A DNA stretch of 64,000 bases from Dehalococcoidia bacterium (lineage in GTDB: Bacteria > Chloroflexota > Dehalococcoidia > Bin125), in contig OZ220495.1 of assembly GCA_965116225.1 (NCBI GenBank), forward strand, positions 2,424,393 through 2,488,392. Direction: 5' to 3'. Below the pieces are notes generated by a model. The model saw only the letters and a list, made by a program, of their open reading frames with translations, was not told the origin of the DNA and did not search any database. The translations under genes were made by a program, and so were the position numbers. Positions 1 to 55,503 of this stretch are shown piece after piece. Every line of letters starts with the position of its first letter. Position 1 is the stretch's first letter.

Positions 1-972
1 TGGAATCCCGATCACGTGGACGCATTCCTCTCACGGGCGAGACTCGCGGACGAGATCGGCGTCGACATGGTCTGTGTGATCGAGGGCTACGGTCACGACG
101 CCTTCAGCGGTATGGCGCTGTTGGCGCAGGCGACGTCGCATGTCCGCATTGCATCCGCGATCGTGAACGTCTATTCGCGGACGCCGGCGACGCTGGCGCA
201 GAGTTTCGGGACGATCGATCAGCTCTCGGGCGGGCGCGTCGTTGTCGGTCTCGGCGCGAGCGCGCCGGGCGCGATCGAGCACTTTCATGGATTGACGTTC
301 GAGCGTCCATTCGCGCGTATCCGCGAGACGGTCGACCTGATTCGCCTCTACTGGTCGCGCGAACGATTCAGCTACGAGGGATCAACCATCCACGTCAAGC
401 GGGCGTTGGTCAGCGGCATGATCCCTGTGCAGCCGACGCCGCCGATTCACCTTGCCACCCTGCATCCCAAATCAGTCAGGATGACCGCCGAGATCGCCGA
501 CGGCTGGATGCCGACCTGGATTCCCAACGACCGCATGACTGATGCTGTATCGCAGGTCAGGCAGTGGTCAGTCGATGCGGGCCGAGCCGCGAATGCGGTC
601 GAGGTGCGCTCGCCCGGCTCCGCCATCGTGCTGGTGGATTCGGAACGCCGCGCCGACGCCGAGCGCAACTTTGCCCAGGGACTGTCCTTTTTCGCCGTAC
701 GCAATGGCCCCGGTTACTTCCATCAGTTTGAGCGGCAGGGCTTCGCGGAGGAGGTCGCCGCGATGCGCGAGGCGTGGCAAACGGGAGGCGTCGCCGCGGC
801 GACCGAGATCGCGATCTCGGTCGCGCCGCGCTTTTCCTGTCGCGGGTCGGTGGAAGATTGCGTTCGACACATCGACGAGCAGTCGGCTGCCGGTGTGAAT
901 CTACACCAGGTCTCAGTTGACAGCGACGACGACTGCGTTTGGGCCGACGCGCTCACGCAGATCGTCGGCTAG
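1..972 (+). CDS. LLM-class (luciferase-like) flavin/F420-dependent oxidoreductase, 5'-truncated by window edge
   Basis: Frame is open from nt 1 with no start for the conserved N-terminal beta1-alpha1 region. Residues such as VDMVCVIEGYGHD, TIDQLSGGRVVVGLGAS and TLHPKSVRMTAEIADGW match the LLM TIM-barrel family. Stop TAG at 970-972. Confidence 0.8.
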   Translation, partial: WNPDHVDAFLSRARLADEIGVDMVCVIEGYGHDAFSGMALLAQATSHVRIASAIVNVYSRTPATLAQSFGTIDQLSGGRVVVGLGASAPGAIEHFHGLTFERPFARIRETVDLIRLYWSRERFSYEGSTIHVKRALVSGMIPVQPTPPIHLATLHPKSVRMTAEIADGWMPTWIPNDRMTDAVSQVRQWSVDAGRAANAVEVRSPGSAIVLVDSERRADAERNFAQGLSFFAVRNGPGYFHQFERQGFAEEVAAMREAWQTGGVAAATEIAISVAPRFSCRGSVEDCVRHIDEQSAAGVNLHQVSVDSDDDCVWADALTQIVG

Positions 973-989
973 GCTGCGCCCAAGGCGAC

Positions 990-2561
990 ATGGGAGAGTC
1001 GACTGTGGTGGATCACGCCGCTGATAGCTTCAACGCGATCAATCGAGGGGTCTACATTGCCGATAATCTCGACTTCCTCCGCGCACTGAACACTGAGACG
1101 GTTGATCTGATCTACATCGATCCGCCGTTCGCCAAGAACGAGACGTGGGAGGCGAATCGCCTGCGCCCTCCGCTGACCGACGAAGAGCGGGCGATCGAGC
1201 GCCGCTTACTCAAATACTGGAGTATCGCCAATGAAGCGCAGGCCAGGCAGTTAGGGGTCGAGTGGCCGGACGACCATACCGGCTTCGCGGACATCTGGAC
1301 CTGGGCGGGGAATATCCATGAGGAGTGGCTGTTATCCCTCGACGAGGATTACCCATCTGTCAAGGAGTTGTTGGAGTCCGCTGAAGCGACGCATAGTGAG
1401 AGCATGGCCGCGTATCTCTGCTACATGGCGATTCGCCTAATTGAGCTGGAGCGGGTACTCAAGCCCACTGGAAGCATCTACCTGCATTGTGATCCCACTG
1501 CCAGCCACTATCTCAAGGGACTCATGGACGCGATTTTCGGAGCGCACAATTTCCGAAATGAGATCATCTGGCGGATCGGATGGGTATCAGGCTTCAAGAC
1601 GCAGAAGCGTGGATGGATTCGCAACCACGACACGATCCTCTATTACGTAGGTTCCCCAGCCGCGGTCGATAGATTCAATAAAGAGCACCTGCCATATCCG
1701 AAAGGCTATGTGAGGCGTGACGGGAAGCCTCCGACGGGTCGAGGCTTCCCGATCGAGGATACCTGGAACAGCTCTGTTGGCGACGCGCTCGATTCGATCA
1801 TGATCAAGAGTTTCTCGAAAGAGAAGACGGGATATCCGACGCAGAAGCCGCTAGCTCTGCTGGAGCGGATCATCAAGTCCTCTTCGAATGAGTCGGAAGT
1901 CGTGCTCGATTGCTTCGCCGGGTGCGCCACGGCGTCGCTCGCTGCCGAGCGACTGAATCGTCGCTGGGTGGCCTGCGATTTCAACCCACGCGCCTGGACT
2001 GTTCTAAAGCGACGGTTCAATCAACCGCCAGTCAAGCTGCGCTGTGCTGACGAGACGACCGGTCAACAGGTTATGGGCACAGAGCCAGTCGTCACCGTTC
2101 ACGGTCCGAACGAGTTGCCGGTTCGGACATCGCCGGCAACGCCCGCGCCTGCTCGATTTATATTGCCGGAGCGCAGGTTCAAGGTTCCCGCCAGTATCAT
2201 TCCGCAGCGAGAGATGCTGGAGGTGTTGCTCGATCTGTCCGACTATCAGGCGTGGTGTTGCGGATTTGCCAATCGCCGGCCGGACGGGACGATCGTTCGC
2301 ACGACCAACAACTTCCACCTCGACCACATCGATCCGCGGTCGAAGCAGGGATCGAATCAGATCGCCAATCGAGCCCCGCTCTGTCCGACGCATAATATGC
2401 GCAAGGGCGACCGCCCGATTGGTCTGCGCGAGTACCGCGAGGAGATCGCCGCAGCGGGCGAACTGCTGGTTGAGGGCGTCGACGATCTGATTTCCTTGTC
2501 TCAGGCCTATCAATGGGCGCTTGATTACTACTCCGACGCCCGTCTCAAGCGCGGCGGGTAG
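990..2561 (+). CDS. Beta-class DNA methyltransferase (N6-adenine/N4-cytosine, PF01555-like) fused to a C-terminal HNH endonuclease domain
   Basis: Motif IV DPPF (IYIDPPFAKNE) lies upstream of motif I-like FxGxG (LDCFAGCATASLAAERL), the beta-class permuted order. The C-terminal ~120 aa carry an HNH signature: WCCGF...HLDHIDP...N...LCPTHNMRKGD. ATG at 990 is preferred over TTG at 939, which overlaps the upstream gene. Confidence 0.75.
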   Translation: MGESTVVDHAADSFNAINRGVYIADNLDFLRALNTETVDLIYIDPPFAKNETWEANRLRPPLTDEERAIERRLLKYWSIANEAQARQLGVEWPDDHTGFADIWTWAGNIHEEWLLSLDEDYPSVKELLESAEATHSESMAAYLCYMAIRLIELERVLKPTGSIYLHCDPTASHYLKGLMDAIFGAHNFRNEIIWRIGWVSGFKTQKRGWIRNHDTILYYVGSPAAVDRFNKEHLPYPKGYVRRDGKPPTGRGFPIEDTWNSSVGDALDSIMIKSFSKEKTGYPTQKPLALLERIIKSSSNESEVVLDCFAGCATASLAAERLNRRWVACDFNPRAWTVLKRRFNQPPVKLRCADETTGQQVMGTEPVVTVHGPNELPVRTSPATPAPARFILPERRFKVPASIIPQREMLEVLLDLSDYQAWCCGFANRRPDGTIVRTTNNFHLDHIDPRSKQGSNQIANRAPLCPTHNMRKGDRPIGLREYREEIAAAGELLVEGVDDLISLSQAYQWALDYYSDARLKRGG

Positions 2562-2618: not shown

Positions 2619-3149
2619 ATGGCAGACAACGATCTGGCGGCGGCGCTGGCGAAGTTCACCGACCGCGCGCTGCGCTGGACCGCGCAATCGATGGAAGACC
2701 TGTCGCAGGACGAGGTACACTTCCGCACATACAAAGGACAGAACTGCATCGGCTTCGAGGCGTGGCACATCGCGCGCACAGCCGACAACCTGATCCACTT
2801 CGCGTTCGAGCGCGAGCAGCCGATCTGGCTCGCCAAGAACATGCACGAGGCATGGGGTCTGCCCAAGGTCGATCAGGGTACCGGGACGAGCTACGAGGAG
2901 GTCTCGAACTGGGTCTTCCCCGACGGCCCGACGCTGGCCGGCTATCTGACCGATGTCGCCGATGTAATCGTCCCGCGGATCGCGGAGATGACGACCGAGT
3001 ACCTGAATTCGATCACGCGCATCGTGCCGCAGGGTGAACTGCCGAAGTGGGAGATCATTGGCCAGGTGATCATCAACCATTCCAACAACCATCTGGGACA
3101 AATCAACGTGGGTCGCTCGATGCAGGGCAAAGAGGGACTCGGCTTCTAG
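2619..3149 (+). CDS. DinB/YfiT-family (DinB_2) metal-dependent protein
   Basis: 176 aa with the His-containing motifs typical of the DinB_2 four-helix bundle (WHIARTADN, INHSNNHLGQI). RBS AAAGGG upstream of ATG. Confidence 0.7.
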   Translation: MADNDLAAALAKFTDRALRWTAQSMEDLSQDEVHFRTYKGQNCIGFEAWHIARTADNLIHFAFEREQPIWLAKNMHEAWGLPKVDQGTGTSYEEVSNWVFPDGPTLAGYLTDVADVIVPRIAEMTTEYLNSITRIVPQGELPKWEIIGQVIINHSNNHLGQINVGRSMQGKEGLGF

Positions 3150-3165: not shown

Positions 3166-4527
3166 ATGCCCATGCCGTCGTCCGACGACGCCCGGTTAGT
3201 TTCCCCGCGTTCGCTGGGCGAACAGGTCGCGGCGACGCGCTCGGGCGAGCGTTCGTTGCAGGACATGATCGCGCAGACGCTGGAGCGGCTCGACGTCGTC
3301 AATCCGCTGGTTCGTGCGATCTTGCCCGATCCCAGGCGACGCGAACGCCTGTCGGCGGAAGCGGCGGCGTTGATCGAGCGCTGGCCGTCGCCTCAGGATC
3401 GACCGGCGCTGTTCGGCGCGATGGTCGTGGTCAAGGACATCTTCAACGTTCAGCGGATGCCGACGCGGGCCGGTTCAGCGGTGCCGCCCGAGTCGTTCAG
3501 TGGCCCGGAGGCCGATGTTGTCGCGCGGCTGCGAGGAGCGGGAGCGTTGATGCTGGGCAAGGCGGTGACGACCGAGTTCGCCTACTTCGCCTCCGGTGCC
3601 ACTGCCAATCCGCGCAACCGCGAGCACACGCCGGGCGGCTCGAGCAGCGGATCAGCCGCCGCCGTCGCGGCCGGGATCGCGCCCCTCGCGCTCGGTTCGC
3701 AAACCGTAGGCTCGGTCATCCGACCGGCATCGTTCTGCGGCGTGGTCGGCTTCAAGCCGTCTTACGACCGCATTCCGACCGGGGGCGCGCTCTACTACTC
3801 GCCGTCGGTGGATACGATTGGCTTCTTCGTCAGCTCCGTCGCCGATGCGCTGTTGGTCGCGTCGGCGCTGTTGCTGGGCTGGCGCGAGGGCGAAGACGCC
3901 GAGGCACCGTTGCCCCGTGTCGGGATCCCGACCGGCCCTTTCCTCGCTCAGGCCGGAGCGGAGATGCGCGCCGCGCTCAATGAAGCGGCCGGGCGATTGC
4001 GCGAGGATGGCATCCAAGTCGAGGAAGCGCCGACGCTGCACGATATCGATGAGATCAGCGCCCGCCATCGTGCGCTGACGACCTACGAATTCGCCGAGAC
4101 GCACCGAGAACGGTATGCGAAGTACGGCGCGATGTTTCGACCGCAGAGCGCTCAGCTCTATGAGGCGGGAACGGCTATTTCGACGCTCGACGCGGAAACA
4201 GGTCGGGTCAGTCGGATTGCGCTGCGCCAGCGTCTACACGAGCACATGGATCGAGCCGGGGTCGATGTCTGGCTTGCGCCCTCGGCGATCGGCCCTGCCC
4301 CGCGCGGGCTGGGATCGACGGGTGATCCGGCGATGAATCTGCCCTGGACCCATGCCGGGATGCCCGTGATCTCGCTTCCCTTCGGCGATGTCGATGGGCT
4401 GCCGCTTGGCCTGTCGCTGGTCGGTCGATTCGGTCACGACGAGAGGCTGCTTGGTCAGGCGGCAACGGTCGAGTCGGCGCTGCGCGTGGTCCCCCCGGGA
4501 GGATTCGAACCTCCGCGCACGGTTTAG
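3166..4527 (+). CDS. Amidase-signature (AS) family amidase
   Basis: GGSSSGSAAAVAAG AS signature with a Ser-cisSer-Lys catalytic context. 453 aa. GGGAGA RBS. The last ~40 nt overlap tRNA-Arg on the opposite strand. Confidence 0.85.
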   Translation: MPMPSSDDARLVSPRSLGEQVAATRSGERSLQDMIAQTLERLDVVNPLVRAILPDPRRRERLSAEAAALIERWPSPQDRPALFGAMVVVKDIFNVQRMPTRAGSAVPPESFSGPEADVVARLRGAGALMLGKAVTTEFAYFASGATANPRNREHTPGGSSSGSAAAVAAGIAPLALGSQTVGSVIRPASFCGVVGFKPSYDRIPTGGALYYSPSVDTIGFFVSSVADALLVASALLLGWREGEDAEAPLPRVGIPTGPFLAQAGAEMRAALNEAAGRLREDGIQVEEAPTLHDIDEISARHRALTTYEFAETHRERYAKYGAMFRPQSAQLYEAGTAISTLDAETGRVSRIALRQRLHEHMDRAGVDVWLAPSAIGPAPRGLGSTGDPAMNLPWTHAGMPVISLPFGDVDGLPLGLSLVGRFGHDERLLGQAATVESALRVVPPGGFEPPRTV

Positions 4528-4559
4528 GAAACCGCCGCTCTATCCCCTGAGCTACGGGG
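4485..4559 (-). tRNA. tRNA-Arg (anticodon CCT), CCA encoded
   Basis: Reverse complement folds as a canonical cloverleaf: acceptor CCCCCCG/CGGGGGG, D-arm GCTC-AGGGGATA-GAGC, anticodon stem GCGGT/ACCGT with loop TTCCTAA (U33, anticodon CCT, A37), variable GCGC, T-arm GGAGG-TTCGAAT-CCTCC, discriminator A, then CCA. Confidence 0.85.
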
Positions 4560-4665
4560 GGTATGGCTGAGTGTATGTCGAACACTGCGTTGATGTTCGA
4601 TATCTGTTTCCTATCCTGTAAGCAGAATCCGAAGCCACTTTCAGTCATGAAGAGGAGAGCGTCGC

Positions 4666-4914
4666 ATGCCGATGTACGAGTACTACTGCCGATCATGCAA
4701 CGAGCAGTTCACCAGACTGCGACCGATGAGCACCGCATCGGAGCCGTACGAGCACGACTGCGGTAATGTCGCGCAGAAGGTGCTCACAACAGCCGTCGTC
4801 ACTGTCGCCGGACAGTTCGCGGAGATGGAAGCGGCTGAGCCGGTGCCTGTCGGCGGGGGTTGTGCCTGCGGTCGCGGCTCCTGCGGTTGCGGCGGCATGG
4901 GCGCGCTGAACTGA
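4666..4914 (+). CDS. FmdB-family zinc-ribbon putative regulatory protein
   Basis: N-terminus MPMYEYYCRSCNEQFT matches the FmdB family consensus (MPxYEYxCxxCGxxFE). Cys-rich Gly tail. AGGAG RBS 8 nt upstream. Confidence 0.75.
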   Translation: MPMYEYYCRSCNEQFTRLRPMSTASEPYEHDCGNVAQKVLTTAVVTVAGQFAEMEAAEPVPVGGGCACGRGSCGCGGMGALN

Positions 4915-4964: not shown

Positions 4965-5678
4965 CTACGCGTTGGCCGATTCCCGGTTCGGTTCAAGCCG
5001 CGCGCTTCGTCGCAGACGCCACAGGCAGATCGCCGAGATCGCGCCGCAGCCGATGACGAAAGCGAGAGTGACGCCGCCGATCAGCAGCGTCGTGTCCAGG
5101 AAAAAGCGCTGTGGAAACAGCTGGATCAAGCCATCGCGCGAGCTGAGCTGCCACAGATCGTTGCTGAAGAACAACAGGTGGAAGCTGCGGAAGGCGGAAT
5201 CGAATCCCGCGAGCGCCAGGATGCCCAGCGCGACGACCAGCGTCGCGACGATGCCGCATGACATCAGCATCGTCGTGGAAAGGGTGCGCAACGCTCGCCC
5301 GCGACTGAAGCGCGCGAGGCCGACAACCGCGGCGATGATGAATCCCAGCGCGGCCCAGCCGGCGTCGAACGTTCGCGCCATCAGACGCTTGACGTCGACC
5401 ATGTGCAGAATCTCTCGATGGGAGTAAAACGGCCCTCCCGCGACCTCAACATCGAGCAGCGCGTCGTCGTTCGTCAGGTAATCCCGCGTCTCCTGCGCGA
5501 CTCTGAGGACTTCATCCTGCGTCAGACCGGTTCTGCCGGTCGCGTCGTAGCGCTCGAAGCCGCGTTCCCACCAGGATGCGGATGTAGTCGCATATCGGAC
5601 GCTGAAGGACACCGGCAGCGTGAACAACGCCAGGGCGAGCGCGATCCGGGCGACGTTGACGAGCGATCGAGTGGCCAT
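4965..5678 (-). CDS. TIGR01906/DUF1461-family integral membrane protein (Lit-like)
   Basis: Multi-TM protein with an EILHMVDVKRL motif reminiscent of DUF1461. The listed ORF extends to 6005, but the first ~109 aa are Arg/Pro-rich and non-protein-like, so an internal ATG (MATRS...) at 5678 is preferred. Confidence 0.55.
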   Translation of the reverse strand: MATRSLVNVARIALALALFTLPVSFSVRYATTSASWWERGFERYDATGRTGLTQDEVLRVAQETRDYLTNDDALLDVEVAGGPFYSHREILHMVDVKRLMARTFDAGWAALGFIIAAVVGLARFSRGRALRTLSTTMLMSCGIVATLVVALGILALAGFDSAFRSFHLLFFSNDLWQLSSRDGLIQLFPQRFFLDTTLLIGGVTLAFVIGCGAISAICLWRLRRSARLEPNRESANA

Positions 5679-5713
5679 CGGTAGGCTGAGCGTATCGATC
5701 GAGAGAGGCGGCG

Positions 5714-6646
5714 ATGGGTGTGGAACTGTCTCGGATGATTGAGCTGGTCGGTCTGGAAGCGGAACCGACGTTGACCATTGCGCGAGTATCGACGGACGAC
5801 GTACCGGTGACGACCGGGGCGCTGGTCGTCCTGATCGATGGACAGGCGGGCGCGGAAGCACAGGTCGCTCGCGCCTTGCGACATTATCCCGCCGCGCATC
5901 GCGTGCGCGCGATCGGGCGATTCGAGCGAATCGTGGAGACAACAGTTGGCGAGATCGTTGCGAACCCGGCAGATGCGGTGGCGCTAGTTCTTGATCCGAT
6001 CGCACTATTCGATGTCCGCAACGCGCCCGATGGCGTGCGCGGCGTGATGGATCGCTTGCGAGACCCGATCAACGGTTGCCCTTGGGATAACGCGCAAACC
6101 CACGAAAGTTTGCGGCGATACCTGTTGGAAGAGTGTTACGAGGTGCTGGACGCGATCGCCGTTGGCGATCCGGCCGAGTTGTGCGAGGAACTGGGCGATC
6201 TGATGATGCAGGTCGTCCTGCACGCCAAACTGGCCGAACAGGCGGGACAGTTCACGCTCGATGATGTGTCCGAGGGAATCCGGGCGAAACTGGTTCGACG
6301 GCATCCGCACGTCTTTGGAGATGAGACCGCGAATACGCCGAAGCTGATCGAGAGTGCCTGGGAGCGGCTCAAGGCTCGCGAGCGACCACAGCGCGAGTCC
6401 GTTCTGGACGGCGTGCCGCGAACGCTGCCGGCCCTGGCCCGCGCCCAGTCGATCCTCGGACGAGCCGAGCGCAACGGATTCAGCCGCGATGCCGTCGAAA
6501 GCGATGATCTGGGTGAGCGGCTGCTGAACCTGGTGCAGGAGGCGCGAGCGCGTGATCTGTCGGCGGAGGACGCCCTGCGAGACGCCTCGGCCGCCTTCGA
6601 GCGACAGGTCAGGACGTTGGAATCCACGCGCGAAACCGAAGCTTAG
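5714..6646 (+). CDS. mazG: Nucleoside triphosphate pyrophosphohydrolase MazG with ~100-aa N-terminal extension
   Basis: The MazG EExxE motif region (LLEECYEVLDAI...ELGDLMMQVVLHAKLAEQ) and the second MazG repeat are present. The N-terminal ~100 aa resemble a residual YabN-like domain. Confidence 0.8.
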   Translation: MGVELSRMIELVGLEAEPTLTIARVSTDDVPVTTGALVVLIDGQAGAEAQVARALRHYPAAHRVRAIGRFERIVETTVGEIVANPADAVALVLDPIALFDVRNAPDGVRGVMDRLRDPINGCPWDNAQTHESLRRYLLEECYEVLDAIAVGDPAELCEELGDLMMQVVLHAKLAEQAGQFTLDDVSEGIRAKLVRRHPHVFGDETANTPKLIESAWERLKARERPQRESVLDGVPRTLPALARAQSILGRAERNGFSRDAVESDDLGERLLNLVQEARARDLSAEDALRDASAAFERQVRTLESTRETEA

Positions 6647-8913
6647 GCGCGATGCAAATTCGCCGCCGACGCCAACAGCCGTTTGACCCCGGTATCCGAG
6701 AAGCGCACCATCACTTCGGCGTCGCGGCCGATCGAGCGCAGCCCGATCACCACGCCCTCGCCGAAGACCTCGTGCGACACCTCATCGCCCTCCCTGAGTC
6801 CGACTCCGTGCGCCGTGACGGGTTCCAGGTCGAAGGAATCGAAGTCGTCCCAGCGCACAATGCGGTTGCGCGCAGGTCGGACGTCTTCGCCGACGCGCGC
6901 CTGCTCACGTTGGTATCGCTGTAGCAGCGCCTCGGGGATGTCGGCCAGGAATCGCGAGGGCGGGTTGTGTCCGCTGCGACCCTGGAACGCGCGTCGAAAC
7001 GCGTAGAGCAGATGCAGTTCGCGCATCGCCCTGGTCATGCCGACGTAGCAGAGTCGGCGCTCCTCCTCAAGCTGGTTGGGGTCGTCCAATGTGAGCCGAT
7101 GCGGCAGCAGATCCTCCTCCATGCCGACCATGAAGACGACCGGAAACTCCAGTCCCTTGGCTTGGTGCAGCGTGATCAGCGTGACGGCGTCGGGCGGTCC
7201 GTCCGGCAGGTCGTCAACGTCGGCGACTAGCGCAACATCTTCGAGGAATGCGTCCAGCGCCGCGCCCGGCGCGATCTGCGCATAGTTTTCGGTGACCGTG
7301 ACCAGCTCCTGCACGTTTTCCCAACGACTCTCGGCTTCAGCCTCGGAGTCCGCCTGTCGCAATAGCCATTCCCGGTAGCGCGTCTTGATCAGGAGCGCTC
7401 GCAATACGTCGGCGAGCGGTTCTCGGGCTGCCTGGACGCGCGCGTCCTCGATCAGGGAAACGAAGTCCTGCAACGATGCGGCGGCGCGGCGCGAGATGCT
7501 CGGCGGCGTCAGATAGCCGCCGAGCGCATCGGCGTCGATGCCGACGGCTGCCGCGGCGGCCTGGAAGGGCGAGCGGGCGTGCTCGGCCGCCCAGCCGGTC
7601 ACGGTTTCCAGCGTCTTGGTACCGATGCCTCTGGTCGGCACGTTGACGACGCGCCCGAACGCGACCGAATCCGCCGGATTGCGAACCAGTCGGAGATAGG
7701 CTAGCAGGTCGCGGACTTCGCGACGGTCGTAGAAGCGCGTCGCGCCGACAAGACGGTAGGGAATGCCGTGATGGATCAGCGATTCCTCGATCGGCCTGGA
7801 CTGCGCGTTGGTGCGATATAGCACCGCGGCGTCGCCGGATCGCATGGAACCGTCGCGTAGCCCGTGCTCGACCCGGGTGGCGACGTACTCGGCTTCGTCG
7901 TCTTCGCTATAGGCCTCGTGCAGATACGGCAACGGGCCATCGCTGTTGTCGGTGACGAGATGGCGCTTGATGCGATTCGCGGCGCGCTCGATCACCGCAT
8001 TCGCGGCGTCGAGGATCTGTTGCGTCGAGCGGTAGTTCTTGTTGAGCTGAACCTCGGTCGCGTCCGGATGGTCGCGGAGAAAGTAGGCGAGATTGCGGCT
8101 GTCGGCGGATCGCCAGGAGTAGATCGATTGGTCGAGATCGCCGACGACAGTGAGATCGCCGCTGGCCGACCAGGCGCGGGCGAGCTGGTACTGAATCATG
8201 GATGTGTCCTGAAATTCGTCGACCAGGACATGTTCGAATTGGTAATCGTCCTTGTCCCGTATCGCTTCCTGATCGAACAGCTCCAGCGTCCTGAGCAGGA
8301 GGTCATCGAAGTCGAGCGCGTCGGCTTCTCCGAGCCGCGCTCGATAGCGTTCCCACACGCGCCCGACGATTTCGTCGAAGTAGGAACCCGCGGCGGCGAG
8401 GAATTCCTCTGTGGTGATCGCTTCGGATTTGGCGCGAGAGATGCGGCTGAGCAGCTCGCGCGGCGAATAGTCTCTGGTACTGAGCTGGAGTTCCTTGAGC
8501 GCCTCGCGCACGATCTGGATTTGGTCGTCGCCGTCGAAGATGACGAAGTTGCGCGGCACACCGATCCCGTGGCCGTGCTTGCGCAGCATGCGCACGCAGA
8601 TACGGTGAAAGGTGCCGAGCGGCATACCTTTGACATCGGGGCCGATCAACAATTCTAGGCGCGACCGCATCTCTCGTGCGGCGCGATTGGTGAACGTCAC
8701 CGCGAGGATGCGCCAGGGGTCCGTGCCCTGTTCGATTATCCACGTATCCACGATTCGGTGCGTGATCACCCGCGTTTTCCCCGATCCCGGCCCCGCGATC
8801 ACCAACAGCGGGCCGTCCCGATGGGTCACGGCGGCTCGCTGGGCATCGTTGAGGTTGTCGAGATCGAGCGGTACCGCGCCGTCGGCGGGAGAATTGGTCA
8901 TGGCAGCCAGCAT
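6643..8913 (-). CDS. pcrA: ATP-dependent DNA helicase PcrA/UvrD (SF1)
   Basis: Walker A AGPGSGKT, UvrD-family helicase motifs (TFTNRAAREM, DEFQDTS, VGDLDQSIY) and the C-terminal VMVRFSDTGVKRL tail. 756 aa. Converges on and overlaps mazG by 4 nt. Confidence 0.9.
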   Translation of the reverse strand: MLAAMTNSPADGAVPLDLDNLNDAQRAAVTHRDGPLLVIAGPGSGKTRVITHRIVDTWIIEQGTDPWRILAVTFTNRAAREMRSRLELLIGPDVKGMPLGTFHRICVRMLRKHGHGIGVPRNFVIFDGDDQIQIVREALKELQLSTRDYSPRELLSRISRAKSEAITTEEFLAAAGSYFDEIVGRVWERYRARLGEADALDFDDLLLRTLELFDQEAIRDKDDYQFEHVLVDEFQDTSMIQYQLARAWSASGDLTVVGDLDQSIYSWRSADSRNLAYFLRDHPDATEVQLNKNYRSTQQILDAANAVIERAANRIKRHLVTDNSDGPLPYLHEAYSEDDEAEYVATRVEHGLRDGSMRSGDAAVLYRTNAQSRPIEESLIHHGIPYRLVGATRFYDRREVRDLLAYLRLVRNPADSVAFGRVVNVPTRGIGTKTLETVTGWAAEHARSPFQAAAAAVGIDADALGGYLTPPSISRRAAASLQDFVSLIEDARVQAAREPLADVLRALLIKTRYREWLLRQADSEAEAESRWENVQELVTVTENYAQIAPGAALDAFLEDVALVADVDDLPDGPPDAVTLITLHQAKGLEFPVVFMVGMEEDLLPHRLTLDDPNQLEEERRLCYVGMTRAMRELHLLYAFRRAFQGRSGHNPPSRFLADIPEALLQRYQREQARVGEDVRPARNRIVRWDDFDSFDLEPVTAHGVGLREGDEVSHEVFGEGVVIGLRSIGRDAEVMVRFSDTGVKRLLASAANLHRA

Positions 8914-8978
8914 AACGGCGGATTCGGCATATAGTTGCGTCTAGCGGCGACAGCGGGGGATGGCAATAGGGGCGGTTC

Positions 8979-9539
8979 ATGCTCGATGGCGTCGGTATCT
9001 CCTGGCCCGGCGGCTCACCCGAAAACACCGGTTTGATCGTGGCGCTGATTGTCGGGGCGTACTTCCTCGTGCTGTGGTTGTCGGCGGTCGTCTGGACGGC
9101 GCGAGACATTCATCAACGCACCGTTGAGCCGATGGCGCAGATCGTCTACACCCTGATCGTGCTGGTCTTCAATTTCCCGGGTCTCGTGGTCTACCGCGTG
9201 TTGCGTCCGCCGATGACGTTGCAGGAATCTGAGGAACACCAGCTCGAATCGACTGCCCTGTCGCGCGAACTGGAGCAGACCTCGCCCTGCCCGCGCTGCG
9301 GTTGCGAGATTCTGCCCGACTATCTTGCCTGTCCGCGTTGCGCGCTGACGTTACGTTCCTCGTGCGCGAACTGCGAGCGAGTGCTCGATCCAGGTTGGCG
9401 GATATGCCCTTGGTGCATGAGGCCGATCGCTGCGGAATCGACCTTGGTTGAATCCCCTACGTCGGCGAGCGACATGCCAGAGTCGCAACCCAACCCTCCA
9501 GCTCCGCAACCAACCGCAGGGAAGCGCATCGATGGCTGA
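8979..9539 (+). CDS. Small membrane protein with PLDc_N-like N-terminal domain and C-terminal double zinc ribbon
   Basis: TM helices with a W..RD......Y pattern (LWLSAVVWTARD...GLVVYRVL) resembling the PLDc_N domain. Followed by CPRCGC...CPRC...CANC...CPWC, four CxxC pairs. Confidence 0.55.
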   Translation: MLDGVGISWPGGSPENTGLIVALIVGAYFLVLWLSAVVWTARDIHQRTVEPMAQIVYTLIVLVFNFPGLVVYRVLRPPMTLQESEEHQLESTALSRELEQTSPCPRCGCEILPDYLACPRCALTLRSSCANCERVLDPGWRICPWCMRPIAAESTLVESPTSASDMPESQPNPPAPQPTAGKRIDG

Positions 9540-10374
9540 TTTCAGGGAATCGCGACTGAGGGTCAACGGCGTCGATGGCGTGATTACTGAGCTGGGCGAC
9601 CACGACCGCAGGGAAGCGGTCGTCTGCCTTCACTCTGTGCCTGGCTCCGGTCGTGATTTCCAGTTCGTGATGCCCGCGATTGGCGAGATCATGCGCGTGG
9701 TCGCCATCGATCTGCCCGGATTCGGCAGAGCCGACAAGCCGCAAACGTTCCCATACTCAATCGAAGGGTACCAGACTTGGCTTGCGCCGGCGCTGACGGA
9801 GCTGGGCGTCGACAGGGTTCACTTGCTGATGCATAGCTTCCACACGCAAACGGGTCTGATGTGGGCGGCGATGCATCCTGATCAGTGTGCGTCGATCATG
9901 CTGCTCGACGGCGGCGTGCTGGAGAACTACCCTGGTAACCTGGTCGCCAACATCTGGCGGACGAAGTTCGCCGGTGAGATCCTCCAGTTGATCACCACAC
10001 GGCCGGCATTCAAGCTGTTTATGCGCTGGGGCAATCCGAAGGGATTGCATTCACAGTGGCTCGATGAGCTGATCACCGAGGACGACCGGGACACGCGCCG
10101 GGTCACGCTGGAGCTGTATCGAAACACTAACTTCGACGACGGTCACATCCTGCGCAAGGCGCTGGCGCCGCATCGCAAGCCGGCGCTCGTGATCTACGGC
10201 AAGAACGATCCATTCATCAGTTGGCGGTACGCGGAGCGGCAGCGGGAGACGTTCCCCGATGCCGAGGTCCACGTCTGGGACGATTGCGGCCACTTCCCGC
10301 ACATCCAGCATCCGCAGCGGACGGCGGCGGCGGTGACGAAGTTCCTGCCCTCGCAGGCGGGGCGCGACGCTTAG
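9532..10374 (+). CDS. Alpha/beta-fold hydrolase
   Basis: VVCLHSVPGSGRDFQF...VHLLMHSFHTQTG (nucleophile-elbow region) and a C-terminal ...DDCGHFPH (catalytic His region). ATG at 9532 overlaps the upstream stop (ATGGCTGA). The ORF-track start at 9448 is a non-coding extension. Confidence 0.75.
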   Translation: MADFRESRLRVNGVDGVITELGDHDRREAVVCLHSVPGSGRDFQFVMPAIGEIMRVVAIDLPGFGRADKPQTFPYSIEGYQTWLAPALTELGVDRVHLLMHSFHTQTGLMWAAMHPDQCASIMLLDGGVLENYPGNLVANIWRTKFAGEILQLITTRPAFKLFMRWGNPKGLHSQWLDELITEDDRDTRRVTLELYRNTNFDDGHILRKALAPHRKPALVIYGKNDPFISWRYAERQRETFPDAEVHVWDDCGHFPHIQHPQRTAAAVTKFLPSQAGRDA

Positions 10375-13905: not shown

Positions 13906-15120
13906 ATGCTTGCGCCGCTTGAGGGTATACGGGTCGTCGAGGTCGCCAATTGGCTGGCGGCGCCCTCGGCAGCGGCGCTGATGGCCGATCTCGGTGCCGA
14001 CGTGATCAAGGTGGAACATCCCGGCGGCGATGCCTGGCGCACCACCCTGATGCGCGGCCAACAGGAGGATTTCAACCCCGAGACCGATGTGGACGCCGCG
14101 TTCGAGCTAGACAATCGCGGCAAGCGCGGCGTCGCGCTGTCGCTCGATCGACCGGGCGCGAGCGATGTCGTCAAACGGATGATCGCCGACGCCGACCTCT
14201 TCATCACTAATCTGACCGCGCCGCGCATCGAACGTTACGACCTGTCTCGCGCTTCGCTGCAGCGCCTCAACCCGCAGTTGATCTACGTCGTCCTGACCGG
14301 CTACGGCACGCGTGGACCCGACAGGGCCAAGACCGCGTTCGACTACTCAGCGTTCTGGTCGCGGTCGGGCATTATGAGCCTGATCGGCGAACCGGACGGC
14401 CCGCCGATGCCGTGCCGACCGGGTCAGGGCGACCATGCGACGGCGCTGAATTTACTTGCGGGCGCGCTGGCTGCCCTGCGCCTTCGCGATCTCACTAACG
14501 ACGGTCAATACGTCGAGGTGACTTTGCAACGCACGGGCGCGTGGACGATCGGTTCGGACCTATCGGCGGCGCTGATCACCAAGCGGCAACCATCGCGCAT
14601 CGACCGAGTGCAGCCCGGCAATCCACTGTTTAACGCGTACGAGACCGCCGACGGGCGCTGGTTGATGCTGGTGATGCCGACTGGAGATCGCTATTGGGCG
14701 CCAACCTGTCGAGCGCTGGGTCGTCTGGACCTGCTTGCCGATGATCGCTACGCCACCCTGCTCGGCCGCATGGAGCACAGCGCGCTGATCACGTCGGAGA
14801 TCGCGTCGGCGTTCCGCGCCAGGCCGCTTGGGGAATGGGCGCCGCTGCTGGACGCTGAAGCGCTGACCTGGGCACCTGTAGTCGAACTGCCTGAGCTGAT
14901 CGCCGATCCGCAGATGGAGGAGATGAACGCCTGGAGCGTGATCGATGGGCCGAACGGTCAGTTCCACACGCTCAATACGCCGTTCGAGATCGCCGGGGCG
15001 GACATTGGACCGCGCGGCCCCGCGCCCACAGCCGGGCAACATACGCATGAGGTGCTGAGAGAAGTCGGCCTGTCGGACGGCGAGATCGCCGCATTGGCCG
15101 AAAACGGCGCGCTCGGCTGA
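13906..15120 (+). CDS. CaiB/BaiF-family (class III) CoA-transferase
   Basis: N-terminal LEGIRVVEVANWLAAPSAAALMADLGADVIKVEHPGGD is the hallmark of family III CoA-transferases. 404 aa. Confidence 0.85.
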   Translation: MLAPLEGIRVVEVANWLAAPSAAALMADLGADVIKVEHPGGDAWRTTLMRGQQEDFNPETDVDAAFELDNRGKRGVALSLDRPGASDVVKRMIADADLFITNLTAPRIERYDLSRASLQRLNPQLIYVVLTGYGTRGPDRAKTAFDYSAFWSRSGIMSLIGEPDGPPMPCRPGQGDHATALNLLAGALAALRLRDLTNDGQYVEVTLQRTGAWTIGSDLSAALITKRQPSRIDRVQPGNPLFNAYETADGRWLMLVMPTGDRYWAPTCRALGRLDLLADDRYATLLGRMEHSALITSEIASAFRARPLGEWAPLLDAEALTWAPVVELPELIADPQMEEMNAWSVIDGPNGQFHTLNTPFEIAGADIGPRGPAPTAGQHTHEVLREVGLSDGEIAALAENGALG

Positions 15121-15140
15121 ATCGCCGGTCCCGCAGCCGA

Positions 15141-16316
15141 ATGTCGAAGTCAGTCGGAGCGTGCGTTATGGGTGAAGCGCTCGACCTCATCGTTCAGGCG
15201 GCGCGTCGGTTCGTGCGCAAGGATATCTGGCTACGCGAACGGCGCATCGATGCCAACGCAACGCAATTGCCGGCTGAGATGTTCGTAATCGTACGCAAGC
15301 GAGCGAGCGAACTAGGCATTGATCACCTGATGGCGCCGCGGGTGGACTCGGTCGGACCGCAGATTGATCTCCCCGATGCCGATCGCTTACGCATCGCCGA
15401 AGAGCTGTCGCAGCATCGCGCCGGGGTGCTCAATCCGGTCTACGGATTGTTCGATCCCGACCCGCCCGCGCAACTGTATGCCGGCACGGATGATCAACGG
15501 AGCCGCTTTCTGGAGCCCCTCCTGCGGAGGGAGGTCATCTGCTTCCGAGGGTTGGACGACCCGGATCTTGCGCATCTGCCGACTGATGGCGTGCGCATCC
15601 GGGCGCAACGACATCAGTCGGGATGGATGTTGGACGGCACCAGGCTGTTCGTCGCCGACGCCAATGATGCCGCTTTCGGCATCGTCTATTGCAATACGGA
15701 AGAAGTAGCCGGGCAGCGAACAGGCGTATCGGCGATCTTGGTCGAGAGTGACCGCATCGGTTTCCAGCGCTGGCGCGCGTGGCCGACGATTGCGGTTGGT
15801 CGCGACACGATGGAGCTCAATCTGTCCGCTGTCAAGGTGCCGCAAACGAACCTGCTTGGCGTTCCTAGTCGGGGACCGGAGTTTGCTAATGATCTGTCAC
15901 TGCGTCGGAGACTATTCACGGCGGCGTATCTGACCGGCGTGGCGTCGGCGGCGCAGGACATATGCCGCTCGGTGGTCTGGTCGCGGCGGATGCACGGCGC
16001 GCTGATCGCGCAGGGCGAACGAGCGCGGCTGGCGCTCGCCGACAACGAGATCGCGGTATCTGCGTCGCGGGCGCTGTATCTGTCCGCCGCGGAGCAGATC
16101 GAAGAGCTCGCGCTTGCCGCACTGTCGTTCGGTCTCGGGGCTGCGTCCTCGGTCGTCGAACGGGCAATGCTGCTACATGGCCCGGTTGGCGGCTCGTCGG
16201 ACCTACCGCTCGAGCGTTGGTCGCGCGAGTTGACCTGGACGCGGTTGAGTCTCGGCGGCGCAGATCAGCAGCGTTTGGCGATCGCACAACGATTGGCGAC
16301 TACGTTCAAGAAGTAA
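15141..16316 (+). CDS. Acyl-CoA dehydrogenase-like protein (divergent, possibly non-catalytic)
   Basis: ACAD-like C-terminal helical domain. The N-terminus is only weakly ACAD-like. Lies immediately downstream of the CoA-transferase. Confidence 0.5.
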   Translation: MSKSVGACVMGEALDLIVQAARRFVRKDIWLRERRIDANATQLPAEMFVIVRKRASELGIDHLMAPRVDSVGPQIDLPDADRLRIAEELSQHRAGVLNPVYGLFDPDPPAQLYAGTDDQRSRFLEPLLRREVICFRGLDDPDLAHLPTDGVRIRAQRHQSGWMLDGTRLFVADANDAAFGIVYCNTEEVAGQRTGVSAILVESDRIGFQRWRAWPTIAVGRDTMELNLSAVKVPQTNLLGVPSRGPEFANDLSLRRRLFTAAYLTGVASAAQDICRSVVWSRRMHGALIAQGERARLALADNEIAVSASRALYLSAAEQIEELALAALSFGLGAASSVVERAMLLHGPVGGSSDLPLERWSRELTWTRLSLGGADQQRLAIAQRLATTFKK

Positions 16317-52614: not shown

Positions 52615-55503
52615 TTACTCCTCTGCCTCGGCTCGTTCCCGATTGAGTTCGAGCAGGCGCGCCAGGACCTCATCGTCCGCGATGTCCGCACTCCAGCCGT
52701 AGGCGGCGCAGACAGCCTCATCCAATTCGCCATGTACGTCGATCAACCAGTCAGGTCGGCGGTTATACAGCTCGGTCATCGTGCGATCTTGCAGGATGGC
52801 TGAATTGACGTTGACGCCGATCGGATTGAGCCAGGCCTCGCGACGTTCCTTCAGCTTCTGCGCCACCGAAGCGATGGCGCGCGCGTGAGCGCGCAGCTCG
52901 GCGTCGAGGCCGCTCGACGCCATGGTCGAGCGGCCAGGGGAACGGAAATGTGTTGAAGCAGAGAGTATGGGTATAGCGAGGGCTGACGCCGAGTCGGGAT
53001 CCCATCGCCAGGGCCCACGTTTCGTGGATTCGTGAGTGAAGGACACCAAAGGTGTAGTCGTCTGCTCTGGCGATAGCGACGACTGTCGCGTCCGGAGTGA
53101 CCTTTGCCTCCAGCCAGACGAAGAATTGGTGCTTCGATGTTAGCGGAGCGGCGATGAATCGGCTCAGTGGGCGAATGGCCGATCGCATCCCAGGTCGCCA
53201 TGACTCGTGTATCCACCAGTTCTCACGTAGCGACGCTGCATCCAGCGATTCCCGATACGGCTTGACGTGTGTTCGTAGGTGTTCCCACGGCTGCTCGTAC
53301 ATGGCAGCCTGCTTGGGATCCATGTCCTGGCCGAAATCAATGATGTAGGCACCCTTGGGTCGTTGAGCGAGGTCATGGGCATTGACGAACGGAAACACGA
53401 CATCAGCATTTGGGCGTCCGTTGACGTTGATGGGTTGGCCTAGCATCTGCTCGCCTTGTTCACGGGTCACATCGAACTGGCCGTTTCTGATGTCGCCCTG
53501 GAACGCGATGCCCATATTCTCGGCCAGCTCGATCGCCGACGCCATATACGCCGAGCCGGCTGTGAGGTCGGGGTTAATGAACGCTACCGATTCTCCGTCA
53601 AGCGTGAGTTCGGTTTCGCTGCCATCGTCCTGTCCGACAATTGAAATACGTACCCGGGCACCGTCATTGGTCCACTCCTGATCGGCATATGCCATGAATA
53701 TCTGTCCCGACCCGGCAATGCGCTCTAGCACACCACGGCTATAGACACCTCGGATGTTTTGTGTAGCCAACAGTCCGGCTCGGCGCGATATCCCCCCCCC
53801 CCATTGATCTGGCGTCGGGCGAGTTCATGCCAGTAGGTGCATAAGTCGACACGTCCATCAAGAGCGCCCCGATAGGCGCGGCGCAGGCGGTCGACATATC
53901 GGGTATCAAGCTGCTGACGCATCAGTTTCATGCCGAGGAAGGGCGGATTGCCGATGATAAATTCTGCCTCCGGCCATGTTGCGGGAACTGGATTACCGTC
54001 GTCGTCTTGATCGAGAACCGCGTTGCGGCATTCAATCTGATCGATCCGGCCGAGGATCGGTTCGCCAAGGCGCTGTAATCCATGCTGCGTGGTCCACTGG
54101 ATATCGCCGATCCAGAGCGATAGTCGGGTGAGGTCGACCGCGAACTGGTCGATATCGATTCCTAGCATGTTGGCGGGGCCGATACGGCGCTGCATGCCGT
54201 TGATGCCGTGCGCGTCATGCGCCCAGCCAATCAACTCCTGCTCAAGTTGTTTGAGCTCGCGCATGGCGACGTACAGGAAGTTGCCTGAGCCGCAGGCAGG
54301 GTCGAGCACGCGCACGCTGGCGAGACGATCGTGAAACGCGCGAATGCGCCCTTCGGGCGAATCGGGATCTGGCTCGTCGAGACTGAGCGCGCCGATCTTG
54401 CCATAGACGGGCGTGGCACCGGAGGTGCCGGAATCCGGCTGGAGCGCCTGCCTCAGATCGGCGAACTCGCGCCGCAGCGGACGCAGGAGTACAGGTTCGA
54501 TCACGAGCATGATGGTGTCGGGATCGGTGTAGTGGGCGCCGGTTTGGGTGCGTCGCTCGGGGTCTAGACCGCGTTCGAAGAGCGTCCCAAAGATGGCGGG
54601 GTCGATGCGCGACCAGTCTAGCTTGCTGGTTTCCAGCAGGGTATTGACCGGATCCCCGGTCAGCGCAAACGTCTCGTCTGCCGCTGACTTGTCGAACAGG
54701 CCGCCGTTGAACCAAGGCACAGGAAGCGGTCCAAAGTCGGGGATCTCCGACGATGACATCGCCCCGAACACTGCCGAGATCTGCGCTTGAGTTCGTTCCG
54801 GACGGTGGCGAAGGTTCTCAAGCGTGATCGTTAATGGCCTGTGGATATCACCGTGATCGTTGCGAAACAGATCGATGCTCTCTGCGAAGAAGGTAAACAC
54901 AATACGGTTCAGAAAGCGGGCGACGACATTGGGGTCGTGGTCGAGCGCGCGCAGCGCCTCTGCGACTTCGCCGAATTTAGCCGCCGCGGTTTCGGTGATG
55001 TAGCGAGGATCACGATCCGGGTGCAGCGGATGTTCGCGGTCTGCGTAAGCAGGCTCAAGGACATCCTGGAGAATCCGGCAGTAGTAGGTCGGGCTCTCCT
55101 TCAGATCCTTGAGGGTGAACCGAATCGTCCGCGCCGGCGCGTTCGTGAACGTTGTGTGAATCTCAAACGTCCGCATGTCGCAGACGACCAGAATCGGTGG
55201 ATTGCCCAGACCTTCCTGATAGCCGCGCAGCTGGCCGTACGCGTCGCGGAAGTTCTTGCCGGGACTCTTATATTCCCAGGCGAAGCATTGTTCTTTCCAC
55301 ACATCCGCCTTGCCAACGTATCCGCCGTCTGCATCATGCACGGCGCGCTCAAAGGTGTATGTCTTGGGATCGTGCGGTGGATTGACCTCGAGCATTACGC
55401 ACAGATCGCGAAAGTGCGTCTGAGCGCCCTGAGCTTCGTTGAGTCCGGACGCATTCCACTTTGAGTAGAACTCAGCGACGCTCAGAGTCGGCTCGGACGG
55501 CAT
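52615..55503 (-). pseudogene. MmeI-family Type IIL restriction-modification enzyme (nuclease, gamma-class N6-A MTase and TRD in one chain), split into three frames
   Basis: ORF 53725..55503 carries the N-terminal D..EYK nuclease motif (GKADVWKEQCFAWEYK), MTase motif I VLDPACGSGNFL and motif IV NPPFLG. ORF 52763..53770 continues the TRD through RYTHTLCFNTFPFP. ORF 52615..53049 carries the family C-terminus (LYNRRPDWLIDVHGELDEAVCAAYGW). Frame breaks lie at the G11 tract (53792-53802) and near 52925. Confidence 0.75.
53792..53802 (-). repeat. G11 homopolymer (C11 on + strand) inside the MmeI-like gene at its first frame break
   Basis: Direct reading. Encodes NGGGGY in frame 1. Inserting one G joins frame 1 to the ORF 52763..53770 frame with no intervening stop. 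Confidence 0.9.

Follow-up and report, generated by a model that had tools for sequence, protein, structure and literature searches.

Type IIG restriction-modification (R-M) enzymes are gamma-class methyltransferases (MTases) that carry a cleavage domain, mostly of the PD-(D/E)XK type, at the N-terminus and the target-recognition domain (TRD) at the C-terminus, and they measure about 900 to 1250 amino acids (aa) (Loenen et al. 2014, PMC3874165). Here we describe a gene in a 64,000-nucleotide (nt) stretch of a Dehalococcoidia bacterium genome (assembly GCA_965116225.1, contig OZ220495.1, forward-strand positions 2,424,393 to 2,488,392; hereafter the window) whose product, the MTase-HNH protein, combines a beta-class MTase and a C-terminal HNH-fold nuclease. 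It resembles the Type IIG/IIC/IIL enzymes MmeI, Eco57I and BpuSI in that nuclease and MTase share one chain with a single, here putative, TRD and no separate restriction endonuclease gene, and in that the family diversifies by TRD change on a conserved scaffold. It differs from Type IIG enzymes in the class of its MTase, in the fold and C-terminal position of its nuclease, in the internal position of the TRD and in its length of 523 aa. By function the protein would fall under Type IIC/IIG, yet structurally it is not a Type IIG enzyme.

Type III Mod subunits (EcoP15I Mod, H. pylori Mod 6k0w and Mbo45V Mod) share with the MTase-HNH protein a beta-class MTase, specific for N6-adenine (m6A) in Mod and probably also here, and a central, swappable TRD; they are among its best matches in sequence, structure and PADLOC searches. 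Type III Mod acts as a dimer. Unlike Type III systems, the MTase-HNH protein has no Res; its nuclease is fused in cis and there is no ATPase. The MboII system, too, offers a likeness, as it pairs the beta-class M.MboIIA with an HNH Type IIS nuclease in a geometry equivalent to a recognition module with a tethered HNH domain: R.MboII is listed as an HNH-family enzyme and cuts 8/7 outside GAAGA (PMC4081073). There, R and M are two proteins, each with its own recognition module, whereas in the present case a single chain with one TRD would provide both activities. Finally, the readers of the Type IV HNH enzymes McrA, TagI and VcaM4I (SRA, EVE and the N-terminal domain of McrA) are not methyltransferases, whereas the N-terminal domain of the MTase-HNH protein keeps every catalytic MTase motif and is no non-catalytic reader. 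No published single-chain enzyme joining a beta-class MTase to an HNH nuclease was found in the open-access full-text literature, although absence there is not proof of novelty.

We propose, with a probability of roughly 0.55, that the MTase-HNH protein works alone as a single-chain R-M enzyme whose one internal TRD would guide methylation as well as cutting by the HNH domain. Three modules are envisaged: a beta-class MTase scaffold, a plug-in TRD cassette (aa 195-277) within it, and a C-terminal, Cas9/IscB-like HNH domain on a tether of roughly 55 residues. The TRD would recognise a short sequence motif, which in host DNA would be methylated by the MTase and thereby shielded from cutting; on unmodified incoming DNA the tethered HNH domain would nick or cut at or near the bound site. 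Characterised beta-class MTases function as dimers, and HNH domains of the Cas9 type cut a single strand; the two HNH domains of a dimer could therefore cut both strands and leave a double-strand break near the site. The enzyme would diversify by exchange of TRD cassettes and local tandem duplication, as a long-resident chromosomal defence gene. We infer the guidance of cleavage by the TRD besides that of methylation, the mode of cutting (nicking versus double-strand), dimerisation and the role in defence. Judged from sequence comparison, TRD swapping, alternative nuclease fusions and the asymmetric loss of nuclease residues favour such a self-contained R-M enzyme.

Domain organisation of the MTase-HNH protein

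The N-terminal part of the protein matched PF01555 (N6_N4_Mtase) over aa 38-335 with E=1.2e-35 and 123.9 bits, compared to a cutoff of 26.7. Its motifs follow the permuted order of the beta class, with motif IV (DPPF) followed by the variable segment, the motif X region (YPTQKP) and motif I (FAGCAT); coordinates of these and all other features are collected in Table 1. PADLOC returned MTase_II with 172.8 bits and MTase_III models with up to 106.8 bits. M.MboIIA was the best sequence match in the PDB (E=7.7e-13), followed by M.BceJIV, the DpnA-like M1.HpyAVI, M.RsrI, CcrM, Type III Mod subunits and M.PvuII. The same set of DNA MTases was recovered by Foldseek with a full-length AlphaFold (AF2) model, whose mean predicted local distance difference test score (pLDDT) was 74.7, with most of the MTase part above 85 and a poorly modelled HNH region. 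The RNA methyltransferase families RsmD and Trm5 scored far below their cutoffs. The domain is a beta-class DNA amino-methyltransferase. The methylated base is probably m6A, as suggested by the Asp of DPPF, the adenine-specific nearest relatives and the source names. Conservation of the MTase motifs is all but complete: DPPF, F309-A310-G311-C312, Q285 and K286 are present in all 116 relatives, and P287 in 115 of them.

The C-terminal part matched PF01844 (HNH) over aa 440-475 with 24.8 bits (curated cutoff 21.4), and the same family was found in relatives. When aa 380-523 were modelled alone from a 67-sequence alignment, a beta-beta-alpha core was obtained with a pLDDT of 91.6 and a predicted template modelling score (pTM) of 0.78. 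Searched against the PDB, a profile of the HNH module matched no chains but those of IscB and Cas9, at weak E-values of 0.013 to 0.2, and NCBIfam gave weak IscB and Cas9d matches. The module is closest to the HNH domains of Cas9 and IscB, with which it could share ancestry. The candidate catalytic residues D445-H446, N460 and H468-N469, and with them the whole signature CC-DH-N-C-HN, are intact in 111 of 116 relatives, and cysteines C423, C424 and C465 show little or no variation in the family; from its sequence, the nuclease is apparently active.

The linker between the two domains is itself conserved, with residues T369, P373, L376, P377, R379, K398 and P400 being invariant. In the full-length model one portion of the linker rests against the MTase, and the block of aa 371-380 reaches a pLDDT of 93.

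An initial annotation, made from the DNA sequence alone, had described a permuted beta-class N6-A/N4-C MTase followed by an HNH nuclease with the pattern CC...HLDHIDP...N...LCPTHN, and had found no restriction, specificity or control gene next to it. Both domain assignments hold. DPPF and FAGCAT lie where that annotation placed them in the domain now matched by PF01555, and the relatives of this domain (M.MboIIA, CcrM, M.RsrI, M.BceJIV, Type III Mod) are DNA MTases. The strings WCCG, HLDHIDP and LCPTHN lie in the part that scores above the PF01844 cutoff, and the metal-binding His and Asn residues of the HNH fold (D445-H446, N460, H468-N469) are kept. Pfam annotation likewise bore out the flanking genes named there (LLM oxidoreductase, DinB-family protein, amidase) and the lack of adjacent R-M genes.

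Exchange of TRD cassettes and nuclease modules

Beta-class enzymes carry the TRD between motifs VIII and X. In the MTase-HNH protein this interval comprises aa 195-277, and among 115 full-length relatives precisely this segment is hypervariable, with MTase core, linker, HNH domain and C-terminal helices being conserved. Across the 116 family members, at least eight unrelated cassette classes of 68 to 178 aa are found on one conserved scaffold, which suggests a diversification of specificity like that of R-M systems and supports the proposed single-chain R-M enzyme. A search for homologs of the TRD only returned mostly fragments.

The clearest cases are tandem copies. Orthologues of the window gene, whose cassette is called type A, are 83-93% identical to it in aa 195-277. 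In three related loci (L002, L003 and L004) a second copy lies beside the type-A gene, and the paralogues are only 10-27% identical in this segment. Outside of it, they share 73-92% identity with the window protein in every region, and the two copies of one genome are 96% (L002), 92% (L003) and 87% (L004) identical to each other, compared to 20-27% inside it. These pairs occupy the slot between the LLM and DinB genes, where the window has just one copy. Because the paralogues are alike outside the segment and unlike inside it, recent cassette replacement or gene conversion on a common scaffold is indicated.

The same pattern might be left by a selfish homing or gene-conversion element, in which the HNH domain would nick unmethylated alleles or those without the gene or cassette, and the MTase would protect the carrier; spread of the element, cassette exchange and tandem duplication would then be self-driven and any defence incidental. 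Concerted evolution of the scaffold within a genome (96% between the two L002 copies) along with cassette replacement, and the insertion of copies both upstream and downstream of the type-A gene at one locus, agree with this scenario, as do the presence of the family in several phyla and the frequency of HNH domains in homing endonucleases, which commonly use them. We nevertheless regard it as unlikely, as the relatives examined showed no polymorphism of empty versus filled sites, the gene keeps its position in six genomes, and intein, intron and phage contexts are absent. The mechanism also overlaps largely with that of a selfish R-M system.

Not only the cassette is mobile between backgrounds. 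Type-A cassettes of 76-86% identity are also found on MTase scaffolds whose identity is just 38-54% and which end in different nucleases. In L022 and L025 an MTase with a type-A TRD is followed by a PD-(D/E)XK domain of the Mrr_cat family (PF04471, 30.3 bits, cutoff 21). In L017, L018 and L019 the same type of MTase and TRD is followed, after a short linker, by a canonical CxxC...CxxC HNH domain, which gave 35-48 bits with PF01844 in L017 and L019 (the two that were scanned), matched HNH_5 too, and is unrelated to the AWCCG-type module of the window protein. Because type-A cassettes sit on diverged scaffolds with other nucleases, cassette, methylase scaffold and nuclease module recombine independently, and this type of methylase has been joined to a nuclease in at least three separate ways. 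Since three nuclease modules were fused independently to this type of MTase, methylation would seem to be functionally coupled to DNA cleavage.

The fusion to Mrr_cat bears on a further explanation, namely that the protein is a modification-sensing nuclease. Its MTase-like domain would read methylated or hemimethylated sites, and the HNH domain would cut modified foreign DNA in the manner of Type IV enzymes, or the unmethylated strand of hemimethylated DNA in the manner of MutH. HNH is a typical effector of Type IV enzymes (McrA, TagI, VcaM4I), and Mrr_cat serves as nuclease in the Type IV enzyme Mrr. A pure reader, however, would be free to lose the SAM-binding and catalytic motifs that are kept in 116 of 116 relatives, and the diversification of the TRD is hard to square with a role in repair. 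A sensing function is therefore considered very unlikely.

Selection and loss of nuclease residues

Selection on the gene was assessed from ratios of nonsynonymous to synonymous substitutions (dN/dS; Nei-Gojobori) between orthologues. At dS values of about 0.7-2, which are partly saturated, dN/dS was 0.03-0.16 across all regions, with 0.025-0.077 for the HNH domain and 0.04-0.08 for the TRD. All domains are under purifying selection.

Catalytic residues of the HNH domain are substituted in five of the 116 relatives (N460S, N460Y, H446Y, D445N plus H446R, and D445G), and those of the MTase motifs in none. Loss of the nuclease but never of the methylase would be expected if the nuclease were harmful without methylation. 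Both members of every tandem pair retain intact HNH and MTase residues.

Conservation of the locus

In five other species-level genomes (L001-L004 and L028) the order LLM, MTase-HNH, DinB, amidase is conserved, and tRNA-Arg is also kept downstream in all five. Identity to the window across these loci is 78-89% for the MTase-HNH protein, 59-81% for LLM and 70-87% for the amidase. No integrase was found in the annotation of the window, and the search for att-like repeats of the tRNA gave only chance matches of 11 nt. In tblastn searches of 50,697 phage and 72,556 plasmid records no match covered at least 80% of the fusion protein; the MTase part alone was matched, at up to 42% identity. Two pattern scans of IMG/VR revealed no relative, and fold matches in BFVD were weak and of the generic HNH type. 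From the conserved synteny including the tRNA, the lack of integrase and att repeat, and the lack of phage, plasmid and viral carriers, it follows that the MTase-HNH gene is in all likelihood a long-resident, vertically inherited chromosomal gene and not recent island cargo.

The initial annotation had seen the nearby tRNA-Arg as a possible island insertion site. The tRNA gene is indeed there, 1.9 kb downstream, and the GC content of the MTase-HNH gene (0.583) is below that of its flanks (about 0.645), which would suit the cargo of a recent island or the anti-restriction methylase of a mobile element or phage. Set against this are the synteny, tRNA included, in five other species, a GC content at third codon positions (GC3) within 1.2 standard deviations of that of the window genes, the failure to find an integrase or att repeat, and the lack of any phage or plasmid record with at least 80% protein coverage or of an IMG/VR relative. 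A recent island or mobile element as the source is hardly credible, and both the tRNA-Arg island and a phage, plasmid or viral origin were rejected. The three roles initially considered for the fusion thus fare differently: the self-contained R-M enzyme is favoured, an anti-restriction module of mobile DNA found no carrier among phages, plasmids and IMG/VR, and a modification-dependent nuclease is disfavoured by the universal retention of the MTase motifs.

Another explanation is an orphan epigenetic methyltransferase, whose HNH domain might be a non-cleaving DNA-binding clamp or have a housekeeping nicking role, with no restriction involved. Synteny in six species-level genomes at an identity at least equal to that of the neighbours, strong purifying selection that includes the TRD within the ortholog group, and the lack of a mobile-element context in the phage, plasmid, IMG/VR and att searches would all fit. 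CcrM, one of the fold matches, belongs to a type of beta-class MTase that has a C-terminal DNA-binding domain. We hold this explanation to be unlikely. The catalytic D-H, N and H-N residues are kept in 111 of 116 relatives, which goes beyond maintenance of a fold; at least eight swapped TRD classes and tandem arrays with differing TRDs are unexpected for a housekeeping regulator; and the same type of MTase and TRD has been fused separately to Mrr_cat and to a second type of HNH domain.

Several points weigh against the single-chain R-M enzyme proposed here. Vertical inheritance and purifying selection on the TRD (dN/dS 0.04-0.08) also suit a housekeeping epigenetic methylase. The proposal gives no account of self-protection; nuclease and methylase would compete for the same site on newly replicated host DNA. 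The cysteine pattern C423-C424...C465-x-x-H468 is atypical and departs from the usual zinc pattern CxxC...CxxC. PADLOC has no nuclease-bearing system for the family, with MTase models alone giving matches. Finally, HNH-deviant sequences number only five, some of which could be sequencing errors.

Related loci and other settings of the HNH module

One genome per species was scanned for related loci, which yielded 32 loci, mostly in Dehalococcoidia metagenome-assembled genomes and a few in Acidimicrobiia and other phyla. Record names such as SB0662, COS4, PNGco and Plut presumably denote bins from sponge or coral holobionts. No partner gene was consistently adjacent across the 32 loci, and a Res gene (SF2 helicase plus nuclease) was absent next to the gene in the window and at all 32 of them. 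This solitary state supports a single-chain R-M enzyme. The neighbours are metabolic genes (DUF1800, DUF1501, NHL repeat, sulfatase, LLM, SDR and ABC). A second synteny group, with the order DUF1800, MTase-HNH, DUF1501, NHL, sulfatase, is found in five other genomes. One locus of the DUF1800/DUF1501 group (L030) has, besides its main copy, a truncated or split second MTase(-HNH) copy some 5 kb further downstream, at 14976-16281. Another MTase-HNH copy, that of L033 (3846-5567), is broken into four colinear pieces in different frames, and its neighbours are also fragmented; it could be a pseudogene or an assembly error and was not counted as evidence of pseudogenes.

When 1.84 billion proteins were searched exhaustively with aa 345-523, no more than 129 cluster representatives were recovered, and the long carriers of the HNH module were colinear MTase-HNH proteins. 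Short matches suggesting standalone HNH genes were rejected as real genes. Most come from long-read assemblies of 9-11x coverage in which housekeeping neighbours are split as well, and they are best read as assembly frameshifts, to which L034 may be an exception. There, on a 4.57-Mb contig (3580-5522), the HNH module forms a separate open reading frame (ORF) of 173 aa, 8 nt past a 470-aa protein in which no Pfam or PADLOC family was detected. The HNH ORF adjoins a large protein (more than 1694 aa) in which Mrr_cat_2 is combined with a ResIII helicase domain, and a serine recombinase is encoded nearby. The pair in L034 could be a two-gene system using the same nuclease module.

An HNH module with 52-66% identity to that of the window protein also follows PDZ domains in three proteins (P0152, encoded at L035 484-1830; P0150; P0196). 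P0152, from a 1.8-kb contig, has hydrophobic N-terminal segments and a coiled-coil-like region of repeated RQRQTEAE, and is predicted to be a membrane protein. This membrane-anchored PDZ-HNH architecture has no obvious explanation.

Gene context in the window

The reading frame of the MTase-HNH gene could be extended upstream to an in-frame TTG at 939 (939-2561, plus strand). This TTG falls within the 3' end of the LLM gene and is unlikely to be the start codon. The ATG at 990 sits 17 nt past the LLM stop codon (TAG, 970-972) and is preceded by AAGG; family-wide conservation begins at about F14. A scan for sigma-70 promoters and terminators, which is uninformative for this phylum, gave no match. 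Apart from the MmeI-family gene described below, no second MTase or HNH copy was found elsewhere in the 64-kb window.

Table 1. Features of the MTase-HNH locus, its surroundings in the window and related loci. Coordinates refer to the window or to the related locus named in the first column.
Sequence	Feature	Coordinates	Strand	Remarks
Window	MTase-HNH fusion, coding sequence	990..2561	+	523 aa + stop; complete ORF
Window	Beta-class (permuted) amino-DNA-methyltransferase domain	1029..2024	+	aa 14-345; Pfam, PADLOC, PDB sequence and fold matches
Window	Motif IV DPPF, catalytic loop	1119..1130	+	aa 44-47; invariant in 116/116 relatives
Window	Putative TRD, type A cassette	1572..1820	+	aa 195-277; between motifs VIII and X
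Window	Motif X region YPTQKP	1833..1850	+	aa 282-287; Y282, T284, Q285, K286, P287 conserved
Window	Motif I FAGCAT, SAM-binding loop	1914..1931	+	aa 309-314
Window	Linker	2025..2186	+	aa 346-399; conserved TVHGPxELPxR and FKVP patches
Window	Portable HNH nuclease module	2187..2549	+	aa 400-520; N-terminal helix, beta-beta-alpha core, C-terminal helices
Window	HNH catalytic core	2250..2405	+	aa 421-472; AWCCG...HLDH...N460...C465-P-T-H468-N469...K472
Window	Bac_luciferase/LLM gene	16-972		Pfam; upstream neighbour
Window	DinB_2 gene	2619-3149		Pfam; downstream neighbour
Window	Amidase gene	3166-4527		Pfam; after DinB_2
Window	tRNA-Arg(CCT)	4487-4561	-	1.9 kb downstream of MTase-HNH
Window	MmeI_TRD ORF	52763-53770	-	Part of split MmeI-family gene
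Window	MmeI_N, MmeI_hel and MmeI_Mtase ORF	53725-55503	-	Other part of split MmeI-family gene
L002	Tandem MTase-HNH copies	8010-9581 and 9609-11264		Extra copy downstream of type-A gene
L003	Tandem MTase-HNH copies	8007-9578 and 9600-11165		Extra copy downstream of type-A gene
L004	Tandem MTase-HNH copies	6406-7965 and about 8001-9524 (pair 6406-9560)		Extra copy upstream
L011	Tandem MTase-HNH pair	5889-9674		Differing TRD cassettes
L022	MTase with type-A TRD and C-terminal Mrr_cat	8010-9461		TRD 86% identical; PF04471
L025	MTase with type-A TRD and C-terminal Mrr_cat	7992-9431		TRD 86% identical; PF04471
L017	Same MTase/TRD type with canonical HNH	7965-9278		CxxC...CxxC; short linker
L018	Same MTase/TRD type with canonical HNH	8079-9173		CxxC...CxxC; short linker
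L019	Same MTase/TRD type with canonical HNH	7959-9248		CxxC...CxxC; short linker

Base composition, for which a deviation from the window had been thought worth checking, gave a divided answer. The GC content of the gene is low compared to 0.639 +/- 0.020 for 41 ORFs of the window, and its GC3 of 0.707 deviates only mildly from their 0.759 +/- 0.044 (1.2 standard deviations low). In the orthologues (L001-L028), too, GC is below that of the flanks in every genome examined, by 1 to 8 points. The MTase part at the N-terminus and the TRD show the strongest dip (0.55-0.57), despite near-normal GC3 and long vertical inheritance; amino-acid composition and repeated import of cassettes are candidate causes.

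A Type IIG/IIL R-M gene of the MmeI family lies on the minus strand at 52763-55503, split into two overlapping ORFs in different frames. It is either a frameshifted pseudogene or the product of a sequencing error. Its GC content is 0.586-0.601; this gene and the MTase-HNH gene are the two gene regions of the window with the lowest GC, a co-occurrence that we count in support of the R-M interpretation.

Downstream of the MTase-HNH locus follow housekeeping genes for a Zn-ribbon protein (4666-4914), a MazG-domain protein (5714-6646) and a UvrD/PcrA helicase (6643-8913, minus strand), which are syntenic in L001. The MazG-domain gene overlaps by about 290 nt with the start of a long minus-strand ORF (4965-6005), and because of this overlap the annotated start of that ORF is probably mis-set.

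Implications

If one TRD indeed couples methylation to cutting by the HNH domain, single-chain R-M would extend beyond the gamma-class design with its N-terminal PD-ExK nuclease, and would do so in 523 aa, about half the size of MmeI-type enzymes. A tentative, more far-reaching view, which we think possible but doubtful, is that the protein is the founding example of a minimal one-protein R-M class, with a beta-class scaffold, a cassette of 70-180 residues that would reprogram methylation and cutting together, and an exchangeable C-terminal nuclease, here a Cas9/IscB-like HNH domain that would cut a single strand. A cassette of this size that has been exchanged many times in nature makes the protein a scaffold from which site-specific nickases or nucleases might be engineered, and if the minimal-class view is true, the natural cassette libraries with their at least eight classes could lead to compact, protein-only, reprogrammable enzymes of this kind.

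For the organisms themselves, the single-chain R-M enzyme would, if real, account for part of the heavy methylase load reported in sponge-associated symbionts, and predictions for their methylomes follow from it. It would also mean that a defence-type gene can stay in a fixed chromosomal slot and be inherited vertically, diversifying in place by cassette exchange and tandem duplication.

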